This document shows, piece after piece, positions 4,195 through 51,703 of a DNA stretch of 64,000 bases. The notes under the pieces are model-generated. The model saw only the letters and a program-made list of their open reading frames with translations. It did not search any database and was not told where the DNA came from. Location: the NCBI RefSeq assembly GCF_011045215.1, contig NZ_CP049201.1. One strand, written 5' to 3'. Source of the DNA: Escherichia coli (GTDB lineage Bacteria > Pseudomonadota > Gammaproteobacteria > Enterobacterales > Enterobacteriaceae). Positions within the stretch are counted from its first letter, which is position 1, and every line of letters starts with the position of its first letter. A program made the translations under genes and the position numbers.

Positions 4195-4509
4195 TTATTC
4201 TGGGAATAAGGTCTGAATATTCTTTTTTATTTTATAAAAATTGCATTCAACTCCGCTAGGCTGATTAGCCTGGTATGTTTCCTTGATGCTAACGGTATTG
4301 AAGGGGAGGTTGTCCTCTGGCCATTCGGCCATCCAGTAGGCAAATGCTGGGTTGCGCTTTATGAGTGCTAGCCCAGCCAGAAAGGCCGCGCGTTGCGCGC
4401 GGCTGCGTTCGGAGGCTGGCAGGCTATCGAGGTAATTGCACGCCTCCTGTTCACTCTTGACGGCGGCGGGCTTCAGATAGAAACTTATCCGTCTGGTTGG
4501 TGTCGTCAT
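4195..4509 (-). CDS. parR: ParR-like partition adaptor / centromere-binding protein
   Basis: 104 aa ORF directly downstream of the parM-like gene. The segment ISFYLKPAAVKSEQEACNYLDSLPASERSRAQRAAFLAGLALIKRNP resembles the plasmid R1 ParR N-terminal ribbon-helix-helix region, as recalled from memory. Confidence 0.7.
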   Translation of the reverse strand: MTTPTRRISFYLKPAAVKSEQEACNYLDSLPASERSRAQRAAFLAGLALIKRNPAFAYWMAEWPEDNLPFNTVSIKETYQANQPSGVECNFYKIKKNIQTLFPE

Positions 4510-4513
4510 TGGT

Positions 4514-5473
4514 TTACTCCTTGTTCATTGCGTACAGTCCATTAACCAGAGCAAACTGTGGCACCCCGTCCGCGATGAAAGTCGCATTAACTCCGCAGGC
4601 TTCGCGGATAGCGGGTGCCACAATCTCCGCCCCGCCACCGACAACCATCACCCGCCCGTAACCCGAAAAAACCGCCAGCGCGCGGATCACGCGTTGTTTC
4701 AGTGTTTCTTCCTTTTCACGAATAACCGCCATCAGGCTGGCGTAATGCGCGTCATTGTGGATGTGCTGGCGCAGCCAGGCTTCATCATGGCGATGTTCGA
4801 TAATGGTATTGGCGATGTGGTGACTGGTGCGCATACCGTTAGTGGCCATCACCGACAGTACGGCATCGGCCATCAGAGAAACGCCTACGTGTGGATCGCA
4901 AAACACCTGGCTGATACCTGCCAGTTGCCCCTGGACCTTTGCCACATCCAGCGTGGTTCCGCCCAAATCCACAATCAGCAGGGATTCAAACGGACTCATG
5001 TCAGCCAGTGCCTTAAAGCCAGCCGGAATGGATTCAGGCATAACCCGTACGTTACGGATAGTGAATGCTTCGCCGTTCTGGTACTCCACCGGGCGCATGA
5101 CGTTCGCTTTTTTGCGGTTGATGTTGGCCATGTCCGGCTGTGCGTTTGTGTCGAAATATTCGCTCAGTGGCAGGGTGACAACCACATCCACTTCCTGTGG
5201 TGTGATGCCTGATTTGACCAGCGCGTGATGAATGGCAATGACATTCACATCGCTGTACTGGTATTGCGTGTCGGTCGTCTGGACAAAGCGATCGCTGACC
5301 GGATCAAAACCATAGCGCACGCCATCAACCATGTAGTTCGCGGGCTGCGTGCCACCGAACGGCGCAGACCATTCCGACTTGAAGCTGTTCGGGCTGATGG
5401 CGTTGCGGCGTTCGCCGTTCTCAGTCCATGCCAGCTTGATGTTGGTGGAGCCGTCATCGATACAAATTTTCAT
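4514..5473 (-). CDS. parM: ParM/StbA-like actin-type segregation ATPase
   Basis: 319 aa. The N-terminus MKICIDDGSTNIKLAW and motifs LIVDLGGTTLD and VMVVGGGAEI resemble R1 ParM (actin-fold phosphate and adenosine motifs). An AAGGAAAAG Shine-Dalgarno lies upstream. Confidence 0.85.
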   Translation of the reverse strand: MKICIDDGSTNIKLAWTENGERRNAISPNSFKSEWSAPFGGTQPANYMVDGVRYGFDPVSDRFVQTTDTQYQYSDVNVIAIHHALVKSGITPQEVDVVVTLPLSEYFDTNAQPDMANINRKKANVMRPVEYQNGEAFTIRNVRVMPESIPAGFKALADMSPFESLLIVDLGGTTLDVAKVQGQLAGISQVFCDPHVGVSLMADAVLSVMATNGMRTSHHIANTIIEHRHDEAWLRQHIHNDAHYASLMAVIREKEETLKQRVIRALAVFSGYGRVMVVGGGAEIVAPAIREACGVNATFIADGVPQFALVNGLYAMNKE

Positions 5474-5613: not shown

Positions 5614-8373
5614 TTTGTTTCCACTGGTCAGGCTACCCTGCAGCAGGTCTGCTTTGCGGCGGGCGCGTTCAGTGGTTTCACTGATTCTCTGTGCGTGCTC
5701 TGCGTCACAAATGGCGCGCAGCATGTCAGAAAGCACGGTAACGGGTGTTTTCATGGTGTTCTGGACCTGCTGAAGTGTGGATGCCAGGCGTGCGGCGGCT
5801 TCGGGGTCTGATGCCCCGAGCTGTGCCAGATAGCTGGCGACCGGGTTATGGCGGATCTCCGTGCTGCTTACGCCGTGATTACGGCTCAGGCGCTGCCAGA
5901 GCTGCGTGATTCGGCTGTCCGGGCGGGTATCCGGTTTACGTACAATTTCAAATCCCTGCGGTGAAATGATGCTGCCGTCAACGTACAGACTGCCGCCCCG
6001 TAACAGGTGCTGCATCTGCTGTTCACCGATATGCAGGCCGAGAGATTCAGCAGACTCCCGCCATTCTTTAGCGAGTAACTCGTGGTTATCAGGCAAAGGC
6101 CGCGGCTGTTTGCGGCTCTGTGTCCAGCTCTGCATTTCATCGCTGCTGTTTTTTGCCTGTTTGTCACGAAGCGAACGCATCAGCGCCCGGCGTTCGTGCC
6201 GTTTCAGTGAGCGCATCCATTCATTCACTTCAACGCCGTCAGGAAGCTGCGGCCACGGTGCTGGCCGTTCTTCCGACTGTTCTGTCCCGCTGTTGCCTGT
6301 TTCCTGTACACGGGGACAGTTATTGCCACGAGTCCAAGGGGCGGCAGGGCCGCCCTGAAGGTCAAAACCATTTTCGCGGGCGCTGTCTTCCGCTTCCGGT
6401 TTACGTCTTACCAGCTTCCAGTTATCCGGATGCGTGCACACACGGGAGGATTCCCCGATGAGTGGTGACCAGATCCCGTAAATCTGTACGCTCTGTTCGC
6501 CGTAATCGTTCAGCTCATCTGCGAGGTCGTAGGCGGTGCGAATCAGGTAGTCTTTACGTGGAACAAGTACGCCACCCTGTTTCTCAATGTAGGTGGCAAA
6601 ACATCCGGCATCAGCGGCAGCAAGAACCGCATCCATTGCGTCATCCTTCAGCCGTTGCGGGCCTTCCGGGTTGCGTGCCATCTGGCTGGCAAGGCGGCGG
6701 AGTTCACGCCACACCTGACGGGAGGGAATGCCAAAGAACTGGAACTGGCGGACCCGGTGAAGGCGCGCCCAGCCGATGGCGCGCTCCACGCTCTCGGCCA
6801 TTGATTTACCTGTTTCGTGGTCAACGCGTGGCTTGCCCGTTTTCGGGTCGATGCCATCCACGGCACGGCTGTCCAGGTTTTTCCCAATGTAGGTGGCGAT
6901 GTAGCTGGTCGGTGTGCCTTTTGAGCCGTCGACGTACTCCGCCTTAAAGCGTGGGGTAATATCATCACCCAGCTCGTGACGATCTTCCTGAATGGCAATA
7001 TCGCGGGTGTGGGACACAATGGTGTCGATTTCTTCCGGATGAGCAAAGACCATCATATGCCAGTGCACGGTGCCGTCATGGTGAGGCTCCACCGTGCGGA
7101 TGCCATACCAGCGCAGGCCGTCGCGGTTCAGTTTCTTGCGGACCGCCGCAAAAAACGTGTTAACCAGGTAATCGCTGGAGTCGCGCATGGTGGCCCCGTT
7201 CCATTTGGGATTCGGATGACCGTTCTCCGTTGTTGCGTGGTATTTTGACGGGCAGGTGACAGTCAGAAACACCGCTCTGTCGCCACGGGCTTCGGCCAGA
7301 AGTTCCAGCCCCTTCATGGTGGCCATCATTTCTGCCTTACGGTGAACCGGGTTACTTACTCCCGCGTAATACACTGTCTCGAGATCAATCGTGAACCCGT
7401 CTTCATTTTCCAGCATGAAACTTTTCAGGAAATCGCGTGTTTTCTCGCGCTGTGCGCGAAACTCGCTTAACGCGTCCTGGCTCAGATATGGTGATGTTTT
7501 TCTGGAAACCAGACAGGCGGCGCGGAGTTGTTCTTCTCTCCACTCGCAACGTAACAGCCACAGTTTGCGTTTCCACCATTCCGCACAGGTCAGGCGAAGG
7601 ATTGCGCCCGGCAGCAGCTCCGTGTCCGGTTCGTTCCTCCGGTCTTTGTCTGTCGTCAGTGCGTCATAATGTGGAGGCATGGCGTGCAGGTGTAACGCCA
7701 TGCGGGCCAGCATCTGATACGCCTTCAGCGTTACATCCATGGTCAGTTCACCATCAGTCGCGCCAAAGCCATCGCAGAGTTTTTCGAAGGTGCTGCTGAA
7801 CATCGCCGCCGTCATGGTGGCCAGCGTCTGTATCTGGTGTTTGTTGAGCTGCGGCAGGTAAAGCAAATCGTCCAGGCGTTCGCGTCCGGCAAGGGAGCGA
7901 TAACCCGGTGTCAGCCAGCGTCCGTCAGTGCGATCCAGACGTTCGAATATTTTGCGCAGGGTTCCGCGTGCATAGCGTTCCGCCTGCCAGCTCTTTTTGC
8001 CTTTCCTGCGATCGGCTTCCTGTTTTTTGCGCAGGAAGGAGAGGTGGCGAATAAGCGGATCGCGCAGATAGGACGGCAGCAGGCGCAGCGAGGCCATGGC
8101 TTCATCCACCGCGCCGCGTGCCTGTTTTCTGGCGTCTCCTGCCAGTGTGATGGTTTTGTCCTGTTTTTCCTGTGCGTCCAGGCTTTTATTAATCAGGTTG
8201 CCCAGCGGCGTGGCGGAGAACGCCGCATCAGCCATTTCCTGGCGGCGCTCGTTCTCTGCCCGGTAGGCATCCAGCCAGGAGGAAAGCGCGGATTCAGGAG
8301 CGGGGATCCCCGTTCCTTCACGCCCCACTGCGTGGCGCGGTTGTTGCCAGTCCCTGATGTACTCTGCCGTCAT
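5575..8373 (-). CDS. Phage replication initiation protein, P2 gpA family (HUH rolling-circle endonuclease)
   Basis: 932 aa ORF containing a TVHWHMMVF motif of the HUH type. Its position after the early-operon genes matches gene A of P2/186. Confidence 0.85.
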   Translation of the reverse strand: MTAEYIRDWQQPRHAVGREGTGIPAPESALSSWLDAYRAENERRQEMADAAFSATPLGNLINKSLDAQEKQDKTITLAGDARKQARGAVDEAMASLRLLPSYLRDPLIRHLSFLRKKQEADRRKGKKSWQAERYARGTLRKIFERLDRTDGRWLTPGYRSLAGRERLDDLLYLPQLNKHQIQTLATMTAAMFSSTFEKLCDGFGATDGELTMDVTLKAYQMLARMALHLHAMPPHYDALTTDKDRRNEPDTELLPGAILRLTCAEWWKRKLWLLRCEWREEQLRAACLVSRKTSPYLSQDALSEFRAQREKTRDFLKSFMLENEDGFTIDLETVYYAGVSNPVHRKAEMMATMKGLELLAEARGDRAVFLTVTCPSKYHATTENGHPNPKWNGATMRDSSDYLVNTFFAAVRKKLNRDGLRWYGIRTVEPHHDGTVHWHMMVFAHPEEIDTIVSHTRDIAIQEDRHELGDDITPRFKAEYVDGSKGTPTSYIATYIGKNLDSRAVDGIDPKTGKPRVDHETGKSMAESVERAIGWARLHRVRQFQFFGIPSRQVWRELRRLASQMARNPEGPQRLKDDAMDAVLAAADAGCFATYIEKQGGVLVPRKDYLIRTAYDLADELNDYGEQSVQIYGIWSPLIGESSRVCTHPDNWKLVRRKPEAEDSARENGFDLQGGPAAPWTRGNNCPRVQETGNSGTEQSEERPAPWPQLPDGVEVNEWMRSLKRHERRALMRSLRDKQAKNSSDEMQSWTQSRKQPRPLPDNHELLAKEWRESAESLGLHIGEQQMQHLLRGGSLYVDGSIISPQGFEIVRKPDTRPDSRITQLWQRLSRNHGVSSTEIRHNPVASYLAQLGASDPEAAARLASTLQQVQNTMKTPVTVLSDMLRAICDAEHAQRISETTERARRKADLLQGSLTSGNKKTDRNGIHKSRK

Positions 8374-8379
8374 AGTGAT

Positions 8380-8745
8380 TTACTTCGTCATGCCATTCAG
8401 GGTGTCGCGGCAGACTGTAGCCAGCCGCTGAATTTCCAGCACGGTGTCTTCTGTGTCGGCATGGCGATGTGTGATGCGGATGCTGTCGGCAATCACATCG
8501 ACGATTGCAGAGGATGGGCGCTGGTAAATGCCAATAACGGACGGGGTGCCACCTTCAATGCGGTAAAGCCTGTAATTTCCCTCGTGGCTGTCAATCATGT
8601 AGCGACCATCAATAACAATCTTTCCGTCAGCGAGCTGCGGTACAGGCAGAGATTTCAGGTACATGTCATAACGATCACGCACGCGAGCGGCAAGATCACG
8701 TTCTGTGTTGAGCAGGTATTCAAGAAAGTCGTTGGCGAGAATCAT
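8380..8745 (-). CDS. Hypothetical phage early-operon protein (121 aa)
   Basis: ORF immediately upstream of the gpA-like gene on the same strand with tight spacing. No motif recognised. Confidence 0.55.
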   Translation of the reverse strand: MILANDFLEYLLNTERDLAARVRDRYDMYLKSLPVPQLADGKIVIDGRYMIDSHEGNYRLYRIEGGTPSVIGIYQRPSSAIVDVIADSIRITHRHADTEDTVLEIQRLATVCRDTLNGMTK

Positions 8746-8817
8746 TGCGGCAATCCTCTTGTTACAGATGTGCGAAGGCCTCCCGCCGCAAGGTGCAGGA
8801 AAGGCCCGGAACAGGAA

Positions 8818-9048
8818 TTAATGGAGTTTGTTTTGCTGCTGGATGAGCTGTTGAAGCTCGTGCAGATCATCCGCCAGATAGCTGAAAACAGAGGCGGAAT
8901 AAATGTTTGATAGTGCGTGGCTGCGCTCATGCCGCATATTGATGTGCATGATTTGCGCGACGCGTGATGCGCGGGAAAGTCTGCGGTTGATTTCAGTCTG
9001 GATGTGACGACGCTCCGCGATAGCGCGGTGCTGTTTGCGGTCTGCCAT
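8818..9048 (-). CDS. Hypothetical phage early-operon protein (76 aa)
   Basis: ORF with an AAGAGG Shine-Dalgarno ~8 nt upstream of the ATG. Basic, helical-looking sequence. Confidence 0.45.
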   Translation of the reverse strand: MADRKQHRAIAERRHIQTEINRRLSRASRVAQIMHINMRHERSHALSNIYSASVFSYLADDLHELQQLIQQQNKLH

Positions 9049-9370
9049 GGTGTGGCCTCTTTGCTCGGTGATAGAAATAACTCACCATCCAGAGTTGAGA
9101 ATCTCGGGGTGGCGAGACGTACAGGGTTCTCAACACCGGAGAGCAAAGAATCCGGCCCGACCGAAGTCGGCCCCGTACGCCCCGCCATAATTCTGACGCG
9201 AAAAAGACGTGGCAATACAGTACGCACAAAAAAACCGCTTGCGCGGTTATGCGCTTTGCTCTGTATCGGGTTGAGAATCCCGGCACCCGTTTTATGAGGT
9301 GCAGCGGAAATGTAACCTGACCGATTGAGGCATGGCAAGCGGTTTTTTTGTGTGTGCATGTTCTGGTTTC

Positions 9371-9670
9371 TTAGTGGTTCAGAAAAAAATCAAAAACCTT
9401 GTCAATGCGTTGCAGCAGCTCTTTCTGTATTGCTTCCGGCGTTTCCGGTTCGCCTGGCGCCTCCAACGTCGCGCAGAAATCCTCGATTTCATGACGGAGC
9501 GTCAGGCGAATGGCGAGAGGTGTGGTTTTGGCGTGCTCCAGCTGATCCAGCAGTGCCAGCACAGCAGACGGCGAGAGCATTGCGCGAAATGCCAGTAATT
9601 TTTGAGGAGTTGCCATTCGTTGCAGGGCAAATGCCAGTTCGCGTAGCTTCTGGTGGTTGGTGGTGCTCAT
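9371..9670 (-). CDS. Hypothetical phage early-operon protein (99 aa)
   Basis: ORF whose start overlaps the stop of the upstream gene (ATGA), typical of this operon. Confidence 0.55.
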   Translation of the reverse strand: MSTTNHQKLRELAFALQRMATPQKLLAFRAMLSPSAVLALLDQLEHAKTTPLAIRLTLRHEIEDFCATLEAPGEPETPEAIQKELLQRIDKVFDFFLNH

Positions 9671-9933
9671 GTTCTGGCTTCCTTCAGTAGCTGGTTAAAC
9701 ATGTGAGTAAGTGGATTGCTACACCCGAACGGCATCGGGTTTACGTGGTAAGAAGCCTGGCCTCCAGTTTTGCGAGCGCGACCACCTGTGCTGCGGTTTG
9801 TTCTGATGACTAAGCCGCCGCGCCAAAGTCGGCGTAACTCAGTATTAATAGCTGTGGTTGGGGTGTTCAATGCTGCGGCGATCTCTCCGCCGCTACACCC
9901 CGGATGAGTAGCGATGTAGTCCAGAATGGTCAT
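9667..9933 (-). CDS. Putative winged-helix DNA-binding protein (88 aa)
   Basis: The sequence ILDYIATHPGCSGGEIAAALNTPTTAINTELRRLWRGGLVIRT looks like a winged helix-turn-helix. Translationally coupled to both neighbours. Confidence 0.6.
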   Translation of the reverse strand: MTILDYIATHPGCSGGEIAAALNTPTTAINTELRRLWRGGLVIRTNRSTGGRARKTGGQASYHVNPMPFGCSNPLTHMFNQLLKEART

Positions 9934-10133
9934 CTGCGTGGCTCCTGTACCTGTCGGATAAGATTCACCCGCGCCACGTTGGTGGCGCAGAAGTAAGTGC
10001 CGTCAGTGAGGTAGATGTGGTGTGCATCCTTTTCCGAACGATGTTTGTCGATAGTGGTAATCAGGCGTTCGTCGACCTCGTATTCGCGCCCTCTGGAGGT
10101 AAAGCGAACGACGGGAAAATGCTTAATTGCCAT
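9930..10133 (-). CDS. Hypothetical phage protein (67 aa)
   Basis: ORF with a 4-nt overlap onto the downstream gene. Confidence 0.5.
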   Translation of the reverse strand: MAIKHFPVVRFTSRGREYEVDERLITTIDKHRSEKDAHHIYLTDGTYFCATNVARVNLIRQVQEPRR

Positions 10134-10156
10134 TGCGCCCCCTTTGTCCAGTAACC

Positions 10157-10573
10157 CTATGCGTTAAATACGGCACGTTGCGCGTCATCAATGAATACAG
10201 CTTGAGAGCGTTCTATCAGGCGGAGATTTGTCAGAAGCTCTGACTCTTTTGTGTGGTAAGGCGTTATCAGGTATTTGCCGTGCAGTTCGGCAATAATGGT
10301 GTATTGCAGCATCATTGCTGAACCAAGAATATAAATGCAGCGTCCAATGCTGGACGGATTCATGGCTGCAACTGTTGACTGTGTTTTAAGAGTGTCGATT
10401 TCTTTGCTCTGTTCCTCAATAATTTTGGCTGCGTCAGCGGTGATTTTTGCAATGGTCAGTGCGTGAAGTGCTGCCATATGTTGGCTACGCTTCACGGCAT
10501 CTTTAGCCATTTCATCTTCCGCTTCTGATATTTTTTTTAATGTGTCGATAATGCCTTCTTCTTTTGCGTTCAT
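10157..10573 (-). CDS. Hypothetical phage protein (138 aa)
   Basis: ORF with a GGAGAT Shine-Dalgarno upstream. No recognisable motif. Confidence 0.55.
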   Translation of the reverse strand: MNAKEEGIIDTLKKISEAEDEMAKDAVKRSQHMAALHALTIAKITADAAKIIEEQSKEIDTLKTQSTVAAMNPSSIGRCIYILGSAMMLQYTIIAELHGKYLITPYHTKESELLTNLRLIERSQAVFIDDAQRAVFNA

Positions 10574-10665
10574 TTTATATCTCCGTTATTTACGTGTGCG
10601 AATACCTCCGCGAATGCGGATAGTTTTCAGGTTTTCGGGTTTAATCTGGTGTTTTGTTTAAGCTG

Positions 10666-51651: not shown

Positions 51652-51703
51652 CCGAATTTCGATTAACGCTCAGTCTCTGACTGAGAAAACTGGAAGCATG
51701 CTA

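Follow-up and report, generated by a model that had tools for sequence, protein, structure and literature searches.

Gene Context and Features of the Locus

The DNA analyzed here, hereafter the window, is a stretch of 64,000 nt from Escherichia coli, in which a gap of ~320 bp had been pointed out from the letters alone, in an earlier note, as a non-coding island within an otherwise tightly packed early operon. As judged from annotated relatives, the host element is a P2-like prophage located next to pdxB, with the gene order integrase, C repressor, Cox, small early genes, the gap, a "derepression protein," a 121-aa protein, the replication endonuclease A, and ParM. Since these flanks are P2-like (Cox, C, integrase, A replication endonuclease, and ParM), the element was regarded as a helper-type phage. 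The region was 90–95% identical to P88-like Peduoviridae of the genus Xuanwuvirus and 100% identical to E. coli chromosomes, and matches to the 2.3-kb region were present in 1,419 of 5,426 complete E. coli genomes (about a quarter). Neither a C4 nor an isrK match was obtained in the early region of P2 itself; thus, the cassette described below, which sits between the early genes and the replication gene A, is not a general P2 feature. The RefSeq annotation carries no RNA gene in the gap, and no tRNA or tmRNA was found in the window. The features recognized at the locus are as follows.

9359..8742, minus strand: eta-like 205-codon ORF, which encloses the promoter, both RNAs, and the epsilon-like gene (in another frame)
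9355..9335, minus strand: upstream arm ACACACAAAAAAACCGCUUGC, complementary to 9242..9222 (IsrK terminator: loop, 3' arm, U-tract)
9338..9309, minus strand: predicted internal constitutive promoter (promoter scan, 9 of 12 matches)
9302..9228, minus strand: IsrK / seqA / c4-a1b1-type small RNA (Rfam RF01394)
9277..9270, minus strand: b1 target copy UUCUCAAC, in the loop of IsrK hairpin 2
9262..9254, minus strand: a1 target copy AGAGCAAAG, within the IsrK-like RNA
9192..9105, minus strand: C4 / CI-type antisense RNA (Rfam RF01695)
9150..9140, minus strand: a' specificity sequence UUCUUUGCUCU, loop of C4 hairpin 2
9134..9127, minus strand: b' specificity sequence GUUGAGAA, single-stranded joint of C4
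9101..9094, minus strand: b2 downstream target UUCUCAAC, with 8-bp complementarity to b', with which it co-varies across cassette types
9066..9056, minus strand: a2 downstream target GAGCAAAGAG, forming a 10-bp duplex with a'
9048..8818, minus strand: gene for the 76-aa epsilon-like "derepression" protein (Pfam PF25738)

Two Structured RNAs and Their Repeated Motifs

A structured small RNA had been among the candidates offered for the gap, and the Rfam scan of the whole window returned two RNAs on the minus strand, both at full length and above the gathering score: isrK (RF01394, model positions 1–77 of 77, 63.1 bits vs. a gathering score of 50) and C4 (RF01695, model positions 1–87 of 87, 78.5 bits vs. 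a gathering score of 45). The minus-strand RNA from 9370 to 9040 (331 nt) was much more stably folded than its shuffles (z = −6.8). The IsrK-like RNA consists of two 5' hairpins followed by a Rho-independent terminator, the stem of which (9248..9233), together with a U7 tract, was located by a terminator scan. The C4-like RNA is closed by a 17-bp stem around two inner hairpins, and its 3' end, CCACCC, is invariant, with an acceptor-like stem visible. Maturation of C4 and CI RNAs involves cleavage of a longer precursor by RNase P (plus PNPase in P4), which leaves a stable RNA of ~77–80 nt. Downstream of the C4-like RNA, a2 overlaps the Shine-Dalgarno sequence AAGAGG (9061..9056), located 7 nt ahead of the AUG at 9048.

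The sequence motifs that had first drawn attention to the gap were recovered and could be assigned to parts of these RNAs. The direct repeats GTTGAGAATC(T/C)CGG, noted at ~9096 and ~9264, were located a few bases away at 9094–9107 and 9270–9283, and the inverted copy GGGTTCTCAAC, noted at ~9126, was located at 9124–9134. The GC-rich hairpin at ~9155–9177 proved to be the first of the two inner hairpins in the C4 RNA, the palindrome ACCGCTTGCGCGGT (9234–9247) is the IsrK terminator stem, and the T-rich tract GCGGTTTTTTT (9341–9351) belongs to one arm of a 21-nt inverted repeat with the IsrK terminator. The three copies of GTTGAGAA/TTCTCAAC correspond to b1 in the loop of IsrK hairpin 2, b' in C4, and b2 just past C4. 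A second motif set, absent from the earlier note, was formed by AGAGCAAAG at 9140–9148 versus CTTTGCTCT at 9254–9262 and TCTTTGCTC at 9058–9066, and it corresponds to a' in the loop of C4 hairpin 2, a1 in IsrK, and a2. The repeats are genuine and far from chance: GTTGAGAAYC occurs three times in the 64-kb window, always in the island, whereas 0.17 copies were expected and none of 100 shuffles reached three. The island repeat search found no repeat family beyond this two-plus-one layout.

Covariation of the Antisense Loops with Two Sets of Targets

The earlier note had proposed a comparison of covariance and structure across homologous prophages, and this comparison was made with 43 distinct P88-like cassettes, in which six blocks were found to co-vary three ways. 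The pattern was already apparent in a gap-free alignment of seven P88-like loci, where the backbone was nearly invariant and four types differed almost only in the six blocks, always complementarily. In the 43 cassettes, the C4 loops paired with the upstream b1/a1 copies in 96.0% of the cells, with 10 pairs changed on both sides, compared with 59% for the best slide control, in which the partner was shifted by 1–3 columns; with the downstream b2/a2 copies, 94.0% of the cells were paired, with nine pairs changed on both sides, compared with 53% for the best slide control. In each case, none of 500 shuffles reached the observed covariation score. The a'-a2 helix was paired at 95.8%, with five pairs changed on both sides, and the intramolecular structure of the Rfam models at 96.4%. 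The three C4 helices were paired at 100%, with four pairs changed on both sides, which on its own is modest support because little variation exists within the lineage.

These blocks define many specificities, as judged from the sequences. Eleven combinations of the a' and b' loops were distinguished, and the a and b modules re-assort. The predicted duplex energy of loop and target averaged −25.8 kcal/mol for cognate and −12.6 kcal/mol for non-cognate combinations. Cross-talk with other elements was also considered and was set aside: P4 CI was predicted to pair with the targets of the window at about −10 kcal/mol, which is the non-cognate level, and all 36 IMG/VR loci that carry the a'/b' specificity of the window have the P88-like backbone and the epsilon-like gene. 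When viral contigs were scanned with the epsilon-like protein as query, 80 loci were obtained, and the cassette lay immediately upstream of the epsilon-like gene in all 80. In P1 and P7, c4 blocks the ribosome-binding site of ant and gives heteroimmunity (PMC12197685). The covariation found here is what characterizes heteroimmune antisense systems, P1/P7 c4 among them.

The same data bear on the proposal that the repeats act at the level of DNA, as a protein-binding array, an iteron-type origin, or a recombination site. Such an element would account for the finding of direct and inverted repeats next to a replication gene, in DNA that looks intergenic; however, the copies co-vary as reverse complements inside an RNA structure that has compensatory changes of its own, the search of the island gave no repeat family other than the two-plus-one layout, and the ori nick site in the P2 record is annotated within gene A. 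We therefore regarded a DNA-level element as extremely improbable. Of the candidates named earlier, the protein-binding array gave way to two target copies and a complementary antisense loop, recognized by three-way compensatory covariation, and nothing in the analysis supports a replication origin.

A Predicted Internal Promoter and an Upstream Arm Complementary to the Terminator

A promoter-like site was predicted directly upstream of the IsrK-like RNA, with a −35 hexamer TTGCCA (9338..9333), an 18-nt spacer, and a −10 hexamer TACATT (9314..9309). The site ends 6 nt ahead of the isrK match, and the predicted RNA start is near 9302. Both hexamers were invariant in the 43 distinct cassettes. 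The site is the counterpart of PLE in P4 and PisrK in Gifsy-1, and in P4 the hexamers TTGCCT and TATAGT occupy the same position relative to the isrK match. From this correspondence, we infer that the site would drive constitutive synthesis of the IsrK-like RNA. A promoter of their own directly upstream and Hfq binding are typical of RNAs in the isrK family. A second promoter-like site, TTGCCA-17-AATTAT (9215..9187), located before C4, was rejected: its −35 hexamer is not conserved, being TCGCCA in P88 and Shae, and its start would fall inside the C4 stem.

The upstream arm links 9335–9355 to 9222–9242 as a 21-nt inverted repeat of 95% complementarity, of which ~8 specific complementary bases remain if the A7 is read as an UP-element by the −35 hexamer and the U7 as a plain terminator tail. 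The 15-nt core of the arm was invariant in the aligned cassettes even though the upstream genes differ, and no counterpart was found in the cassettes of P4, ArgO145, or ASU11 (P4 and lambdoid types). In equilibrium folding, the terminator stem had a probability of 0.9 when the RNA began at 9302 and of 0.000 when it began upstream, and in the RNA with the upstream start the long-range helix between arm and terminator had a probability of 0.91–0.96. Only transcripts that begin further upstream, at the early promoter Pe, would contain the arm, and the folding model suggests that it may sequester the IsrK terminator and thus help Pe transcripts to pass. Local hairpins usually win kinetically over long-range helices. 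We treated the arm as a lineage-specific feature, for which terminator sequestration is put forward as a hypothesis only.

A Maintained Reading Frame across Both RNAs

The gap had been said to hold no convincing ORF on either strand, which was not confirmed. A minus-strand ORF of 205 codons (9359..8742) spans it, starting upstream of the internal promoter and ending with a stop codon that overlaps the start of the 121-aa gene (ATGA). The frame was open, at 205–206 codons ending in ATGA, in 82 of 87 loci. Its ATG was conserved, at a constant distance from the cassette, in six or more upstream contexts unrelated to each other, in each case 2–20 nt past the stop codon of the preceding gene, and the observed substitutions introduced no net stop codons where ~11 were expected. 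The ORF gave a weak match to Pfam Phage_ASH (E = 0.0067, nt 9314..9036), and the P4 ORF over the CI RNA gave a strong one (E = 8e-16) that covers CI and seqC. In both ORFs, Phage_ASH matches exactly the part that covers the RNAs, and with respect to the homologous RNA elements the two ORFs are read in one frame. It follows that Pfam PF10554 (Phage_ASH), which is used as an "epsilon" marker, should be treated with caution, because it matches the ORF over the CI/C4 RNA and not the epsilon protein.

According to passages of PMC10111431 that cite Forti et al. (1999), a constitutive promoter lies inside the eta gene of P4, the full-length Eta protein is translated only from an upstream promoter, in coupling with an alpA homologue, and "Eta translation prevents termination." In the window, the eta-like frame is maintained and its layout is that of P4 eta; thus, a purely spurious ORF, or a Phage_ASH match that is a pure artefact, was rejected, and translation of the frame is predicted. 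The start codon of the ORF lies ahead of the internal promoter, so that only RNA made from the early promoter could be translated in this frame.

We then weighed the opposite reading, in which the stretch is the coding sequence of a 205-aa "Ash family" or "transcriptional regulator" protein, and the RNA matches and repeats are its by-products. The conserved open frame and ATG, the ATGA coupling, and the weak Phage_ASH match all speak for coding, as do the GenBank records: the ORF is annotated as a CDS in 569R5, P88_4B11, and PhiR44_2, and some records show it replacing the 76-aa gene. However, the encoded protein is not conserved (63 synonymous vs. 258 non-synonymous differences), the differences between variants cluster in six mutually complementary short blocks and are not codon-like, and in two variants a pair of +1/−1 indels frameshifts ~60 codons between b1 and b2 while the RNA pairing is kept. 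The ORF also overlaps the epsilon homologue out of frame, and in the equivalent P4 ORF the determinant is reported as a short processed RNA. A coding function alone was thus considered very improbable. The earlier note had itself named a conserved coding gene, with the repeats as codon-level coincidence, as the finding that would tell against its view; an open frame is indeed conserved, but the protein sequence is not, and the repeats are no codon-level coincidence. Because the ORF is kept open in 82 of 87 loci, we concluded that the stretch codes for RNA and that some transcripts are probably translated as well.

The Epsilon-Like Gene and the Resident Repressor

The first ORF after a2 encodes a 76-aa protein, named "derepression protein" in RefSeq, that matched Pfam PF25738 Derepression (E = 2e-8) and, in BLASTP, the epsilon protein of P4 (32% identity over 50 aa, E = 3e-8); it had no NCBIfam match. 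The frame evolves quickly (110 synonymous vs. 209 non-synonymous codon differences). The resident repressor is a homologue of P2 C (35% identical, E = 6e-20), and by analogy the epsilon-like protein would inactivate it. No homology was found between the 121-aa gene and P4 ORF151. The phage P88 was obtained through mitomycin C induction (PMC5285337). LexA control of the region was considered and rejected, the sole CTGT-N8-ACAG site falling inside gene A, at chance frequency.

Proposed Mechanism

Taken together, the results make it very probable that the island is an antisense-RNA immunity cassette of the P4/P1 type within the early operon of a P88-like (P2-family) prophage. By comparison with the known systems, the cassette most likely keeps the anti-repressor gene silent and probably also the replication gene behind it. 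The "late-control element" that had been suggested earlier was loosely right, in that gating by the cassette most likely extends to the anti-repressor and to the replication gene that follows.

By analogy with P4, P1/P7, and Gifsy-1, we propose that the internal constitutive promoter makes the IsrK-like RNA, with most transcripts stopping at its terminator, and that the read-through transcripts would be processed to a stable C4-like RNA. In P1 and P4, the enzyme that processes the C4 or CI read-through RNA is RNase P. The C4-like RNA would pair with b2/a2 and block translation of the epsilon-like gene, and the untranslated RNA would then terminate prematurely through Rho-dependent polarity, again by analogy. 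As a result, the anti-repressor, the 121-aa gene, and the replication gene A would remain silent both in the lysogen and in any superinfecting phage that shares its specificity. The b1/a1 copy on the upstream side could pair with C4 in cis or in trans, thereby tuning or titrating it. Transcripts from Pe would escape this control by translating the eta-like ORF across the whole cassette, as P4 eta does, and the arm on the IsrK terminator may also help them to pass. More tentatively, the cassette could thus be a gate that depends on where transcription starts: RNA begun at the internal promoter would be terminated and supply the repressor RNA, and RNA from Pe would pass, by means of the eta-like ORF and the arm, as far as the anti-repressor and replication gene A.

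The role of the upstream RNA could also be of the opposite sign. In a positive switch of the Gifsy-1 type, the mRNA would be silent because b1/a1 pair with a'/b' in cis, and free IsrK-like RNA would activate it in trans. We considered this rather unlikely, and we gave as little credit to its corollary, in which the C4-like segment is mainly a structural element of the mRNA and not a repressor RNA. The pairing of b1/a1 with a'/b' is supported as strongly as the downstream pairing, and the same two Rfam families lie at Gifsy-1 orf45-anrP, where IsrK in trans raises anrP translation >100-fold (PMC4825925). However, b2/a2 over the Shine-Dalgarno sequence co-vary just as tightly with the C4 loops, for which a model with activation alone has no need, and the backbone, with its CCACCC 3' end and long closing stem, agrees with that of the processed repressor RNAs in P1 and P4. 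Both models could hold at once. Gifsy-1 carries the one homologous cassette studied outside P4, P1, and N15, and its IsrK, supplied in trans, activates downstream translation and does not simply repress it; activation by the upstream RNA is thus a serious alternative here.

Significance

The stretch has been left unannotated or called "hypothetical protein," "transcriptional regulator," or "ash family protein," whereas it holds two regulatory RNAs predicted to control an anti-repressor. In the passages of PMC2669165 that deal with it, the Sakai prophage Sp13 of E. coli O157 was inducible by mitomycin C although its repressor is without a peptidase motif, and the authors suspected the epsilon-like gene. 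The cassette gives a testable route to the induction of prophages of the P88/Sp13 type despite such a repressor. The 11 loop combinations on a near-identical backbone form a natural panel useful for studies of antisense specificity and heteroimmunity. Moreover, the immunity and derepression module of the satellite P4 has a close counterpart in helper-type phages, and a helper phage with a seqA-CI-seqC-epsilon module in at least 11 specificities suggests that P4 and helper modules were drawn from a common pool. The terminator-sequestering arm, if true, would be a new anti-termination device for this family.

Comparison with Known Systems

The element belongs to a well-described kind, represented by P4 seqA-CI-seqC, P1/P7 c4, and Gifsy-1 IsrK. 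The equivalence of IsrK with seqA and of C4 with CI has been noted before, under the name of an "IsrK-C4 immunity system," and P1, P7, and N15 are said to carry comparable systems (PMC3632133).

The closest likeness is to P4, which carries the same Rfam pair in the same order and spacing class, with isrK at 8692..8615 and C4 at 8507..8420, the known positions of seqA and CI. The P4 layout comprises the PLE promoter (TTGCCT ... TATAGT), seqA with GUGAGAA and UUCACAGG, the terminator, CI, and seqC. CI carries CCUGUGAA and UUCUCAC, and seqC carries GUGAGAA and UUCACAGGAGG just ahead of the AUG; the order b1-a1, a'-b', b2-a2 is therefore that of the window, with a2 over the ribosome-binding site. 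In both elements, an ORF of ~200 codons that begins upstream of the promoter encloses the RNAs, and an epsilon-family gene lies downstream, with a replication gene further downstream. Several differences were also evident. The specificity sequences of P4 are unrelated to those of the window, and P4 is without the 21-nt terminator-complementary arm. P4 is a satellite (sid, psu, delta, alpha primase), whereas the host element here is a complete phage of the P2-like type (Cox, P2-C-type repressor, A endonuclease). In P4, kil, which matches phage_ICD_like at 7.8e-21, is the in-frame end of eta, and epsilon follows ~190 nt later; in the window, a2 is directly followed by the gene of the epsilon homologue, whose frame differs from that of the eta-like ORF, and no Kil/Icd-like ORF was found after the cassette, unlike in P1 and P4. 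P4 has a Rho-dependent terminator, timm, downstream, the use of which depends on CI.

The immI region of P1/P7 (a1b1 - c4 - a2b2 - icd - ant) uses the same antisense family, RF01695, with targets duplicated upstream and downstream. There too, the system masks the ribosome-binding site of the ORF that comes first downstream, it controls an anti-repressor, and changes of loop and target give rise to heteroimmunity (PMC12197685). Unlike P1/P7, the cassette has neither icd nor an Ant1/2 homologue, its anti-repressor being of the epsilon family, and the 11 loop combinations stand against the two classic specificities of P1/P7.

In Gifsy-1, the order isrK - orf45 (STnc1160) - anrP likewise places an isrK match and then a C4 match ahead of an anti-repressor gene, and IsrK has its own promoter and a leaky terminator. 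Gifsy-1 IsrK has been described as a structural homologue of P4 SeqA, with the processed RNA STnc1160 downstream (PMC4825925), and both IsrK and STnc1160 are highly expressed in Gifsy-1 lysogens under all conditions tested (PMC7067206). The isrK and C4 pair also occurs in many Stx and other lambdoid phages, at ~70% DNA identity, ahead of Rha-type or "putative antirepressor" genes; this position is consistent with a general role of such cassettes in anti-repressor control. In Gifsy-1 and the lambdoid phages, the downstream gene is of the Rha/AnrP type and the cassette heads a small operon of its own, whereas here it is embedded in an essential early operon.

Sp13 resembles the prophage studied here in being P2-like with an epsilon homologue, a likeness taken from its description; an upstream RNA cassette is not mentioned in the Sp13 passages of PMC2669165. 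The element is notable for its position in a helper-type phage, just ahead of an epsilon homologue and gene A, for its many natural specificities, and for a possible terminator-sequestering arm.

Divergence and Candidate Regulatory Elements of the Cassette

The cassette encoding the IsrK-like RNA and the C4 antisense RNA (9030-9375) shared only ~86% identity with the nearest deposited phages, compared with ~95% for the 2.3-kb region that includes it (8300-10600). Nearly all of the excess divergence of the cassette was held by the six pairing blocks, that is, the C4 loops a' and b' and their upstream (a1/b1) and downstream (a2/b2) targets, and the a and b modules were re-assorted among the cassette types. 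Such a concentration of divergence in the pairing blocks is what diversifying selection for immunity specificity would be expected to produce. Two further elements were observed within the cassette:

9335-9355 and 9222-9242: 21-nt inverted repeat, joining a segment upstream of the predicted internal promoter to the IsrK terminator
9187-9215, minus strand: sigma-70-like site TTGCCA-17-AATTAT, directly before C4

The inverted repeat did not vary among the aligned P88-like loci, and the P4 and lambdoid cassettes compared lacked it. It is predicted to abolish the IsrK terminator hairpin only in upstream-starting transcripts, those from the early promoter Pe. The sigma-70-like site, considered as a second promoter, is probably nonfunctional, because its -35 element was not conserved among relatives and a start from it would fall inside the C4 stem.

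Annotation of the Cassette Region in Public Records

Across the public records of five related loci (L003-L007), the 205-aa eta-type open reading frame (ORF) (8742-9359, minus strand) and the nested epsilon homologue (8818-9048, minus strand) were annotated inconsistently. In some records the annotated gene was the 205-aa ORF, under the name "hypothetical protein," "transcriptional regulator," or "ash family protein," whereas others annotated the nested 76-aa "derepression protein" instead; in none of the records inspected was the IsrK-like or the C4 RNA annotated. The Pfam profile PF10554 (Phage_ASH) matched the translated RNA cassette, that is, the eta-type ORF (9036-9314, minus strand; E = 0.0067), and also the old "cI gene product" ORF of satellite phage P4 (L008 8330-8521, minus strand; E = 8e-16). 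The match is not to the epsilon protein, whose true family is PF25738, yet PF10554 served as the "epsilon" marker in one published survey of P4-like satellites (PMC8628076).

Other Features of the Window

4195-5473, minus strand: 319-aa segregation ATPase of the ParM type, then a 104-aa ORF (4195..4509), in the P2-like prophage
51654-51696, plus strand: nuoG RNA (Rfam match, 50.3 bits vs 33)

Replication gene A is directly followed by the ATPase gene and the 104-aa ORF, and this small ORF would, by its position, correspond to the "plasmid partitioning/stability family protein" of relatives. An integrated P2-like phage does not usually carry such a pair, which hints that the phage may have a plasmid-like phase. 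The nuoG RNA match lies in the host-chromosome part and has no relation to the cassette finding.

Comparison with P4

In P4, kil is the in-frame end of eta, and it matched the NCBIfam model phage_ICD_like (L008 8168-8584, minus strand, residues 85-132; E = 7.8e-21); the P4 gene order is therefore P1-like, c4 - icd-like - anti-repressor. Unlike P4, the P88-like cassette is without an icd-like ORF, which was either lost or never present.
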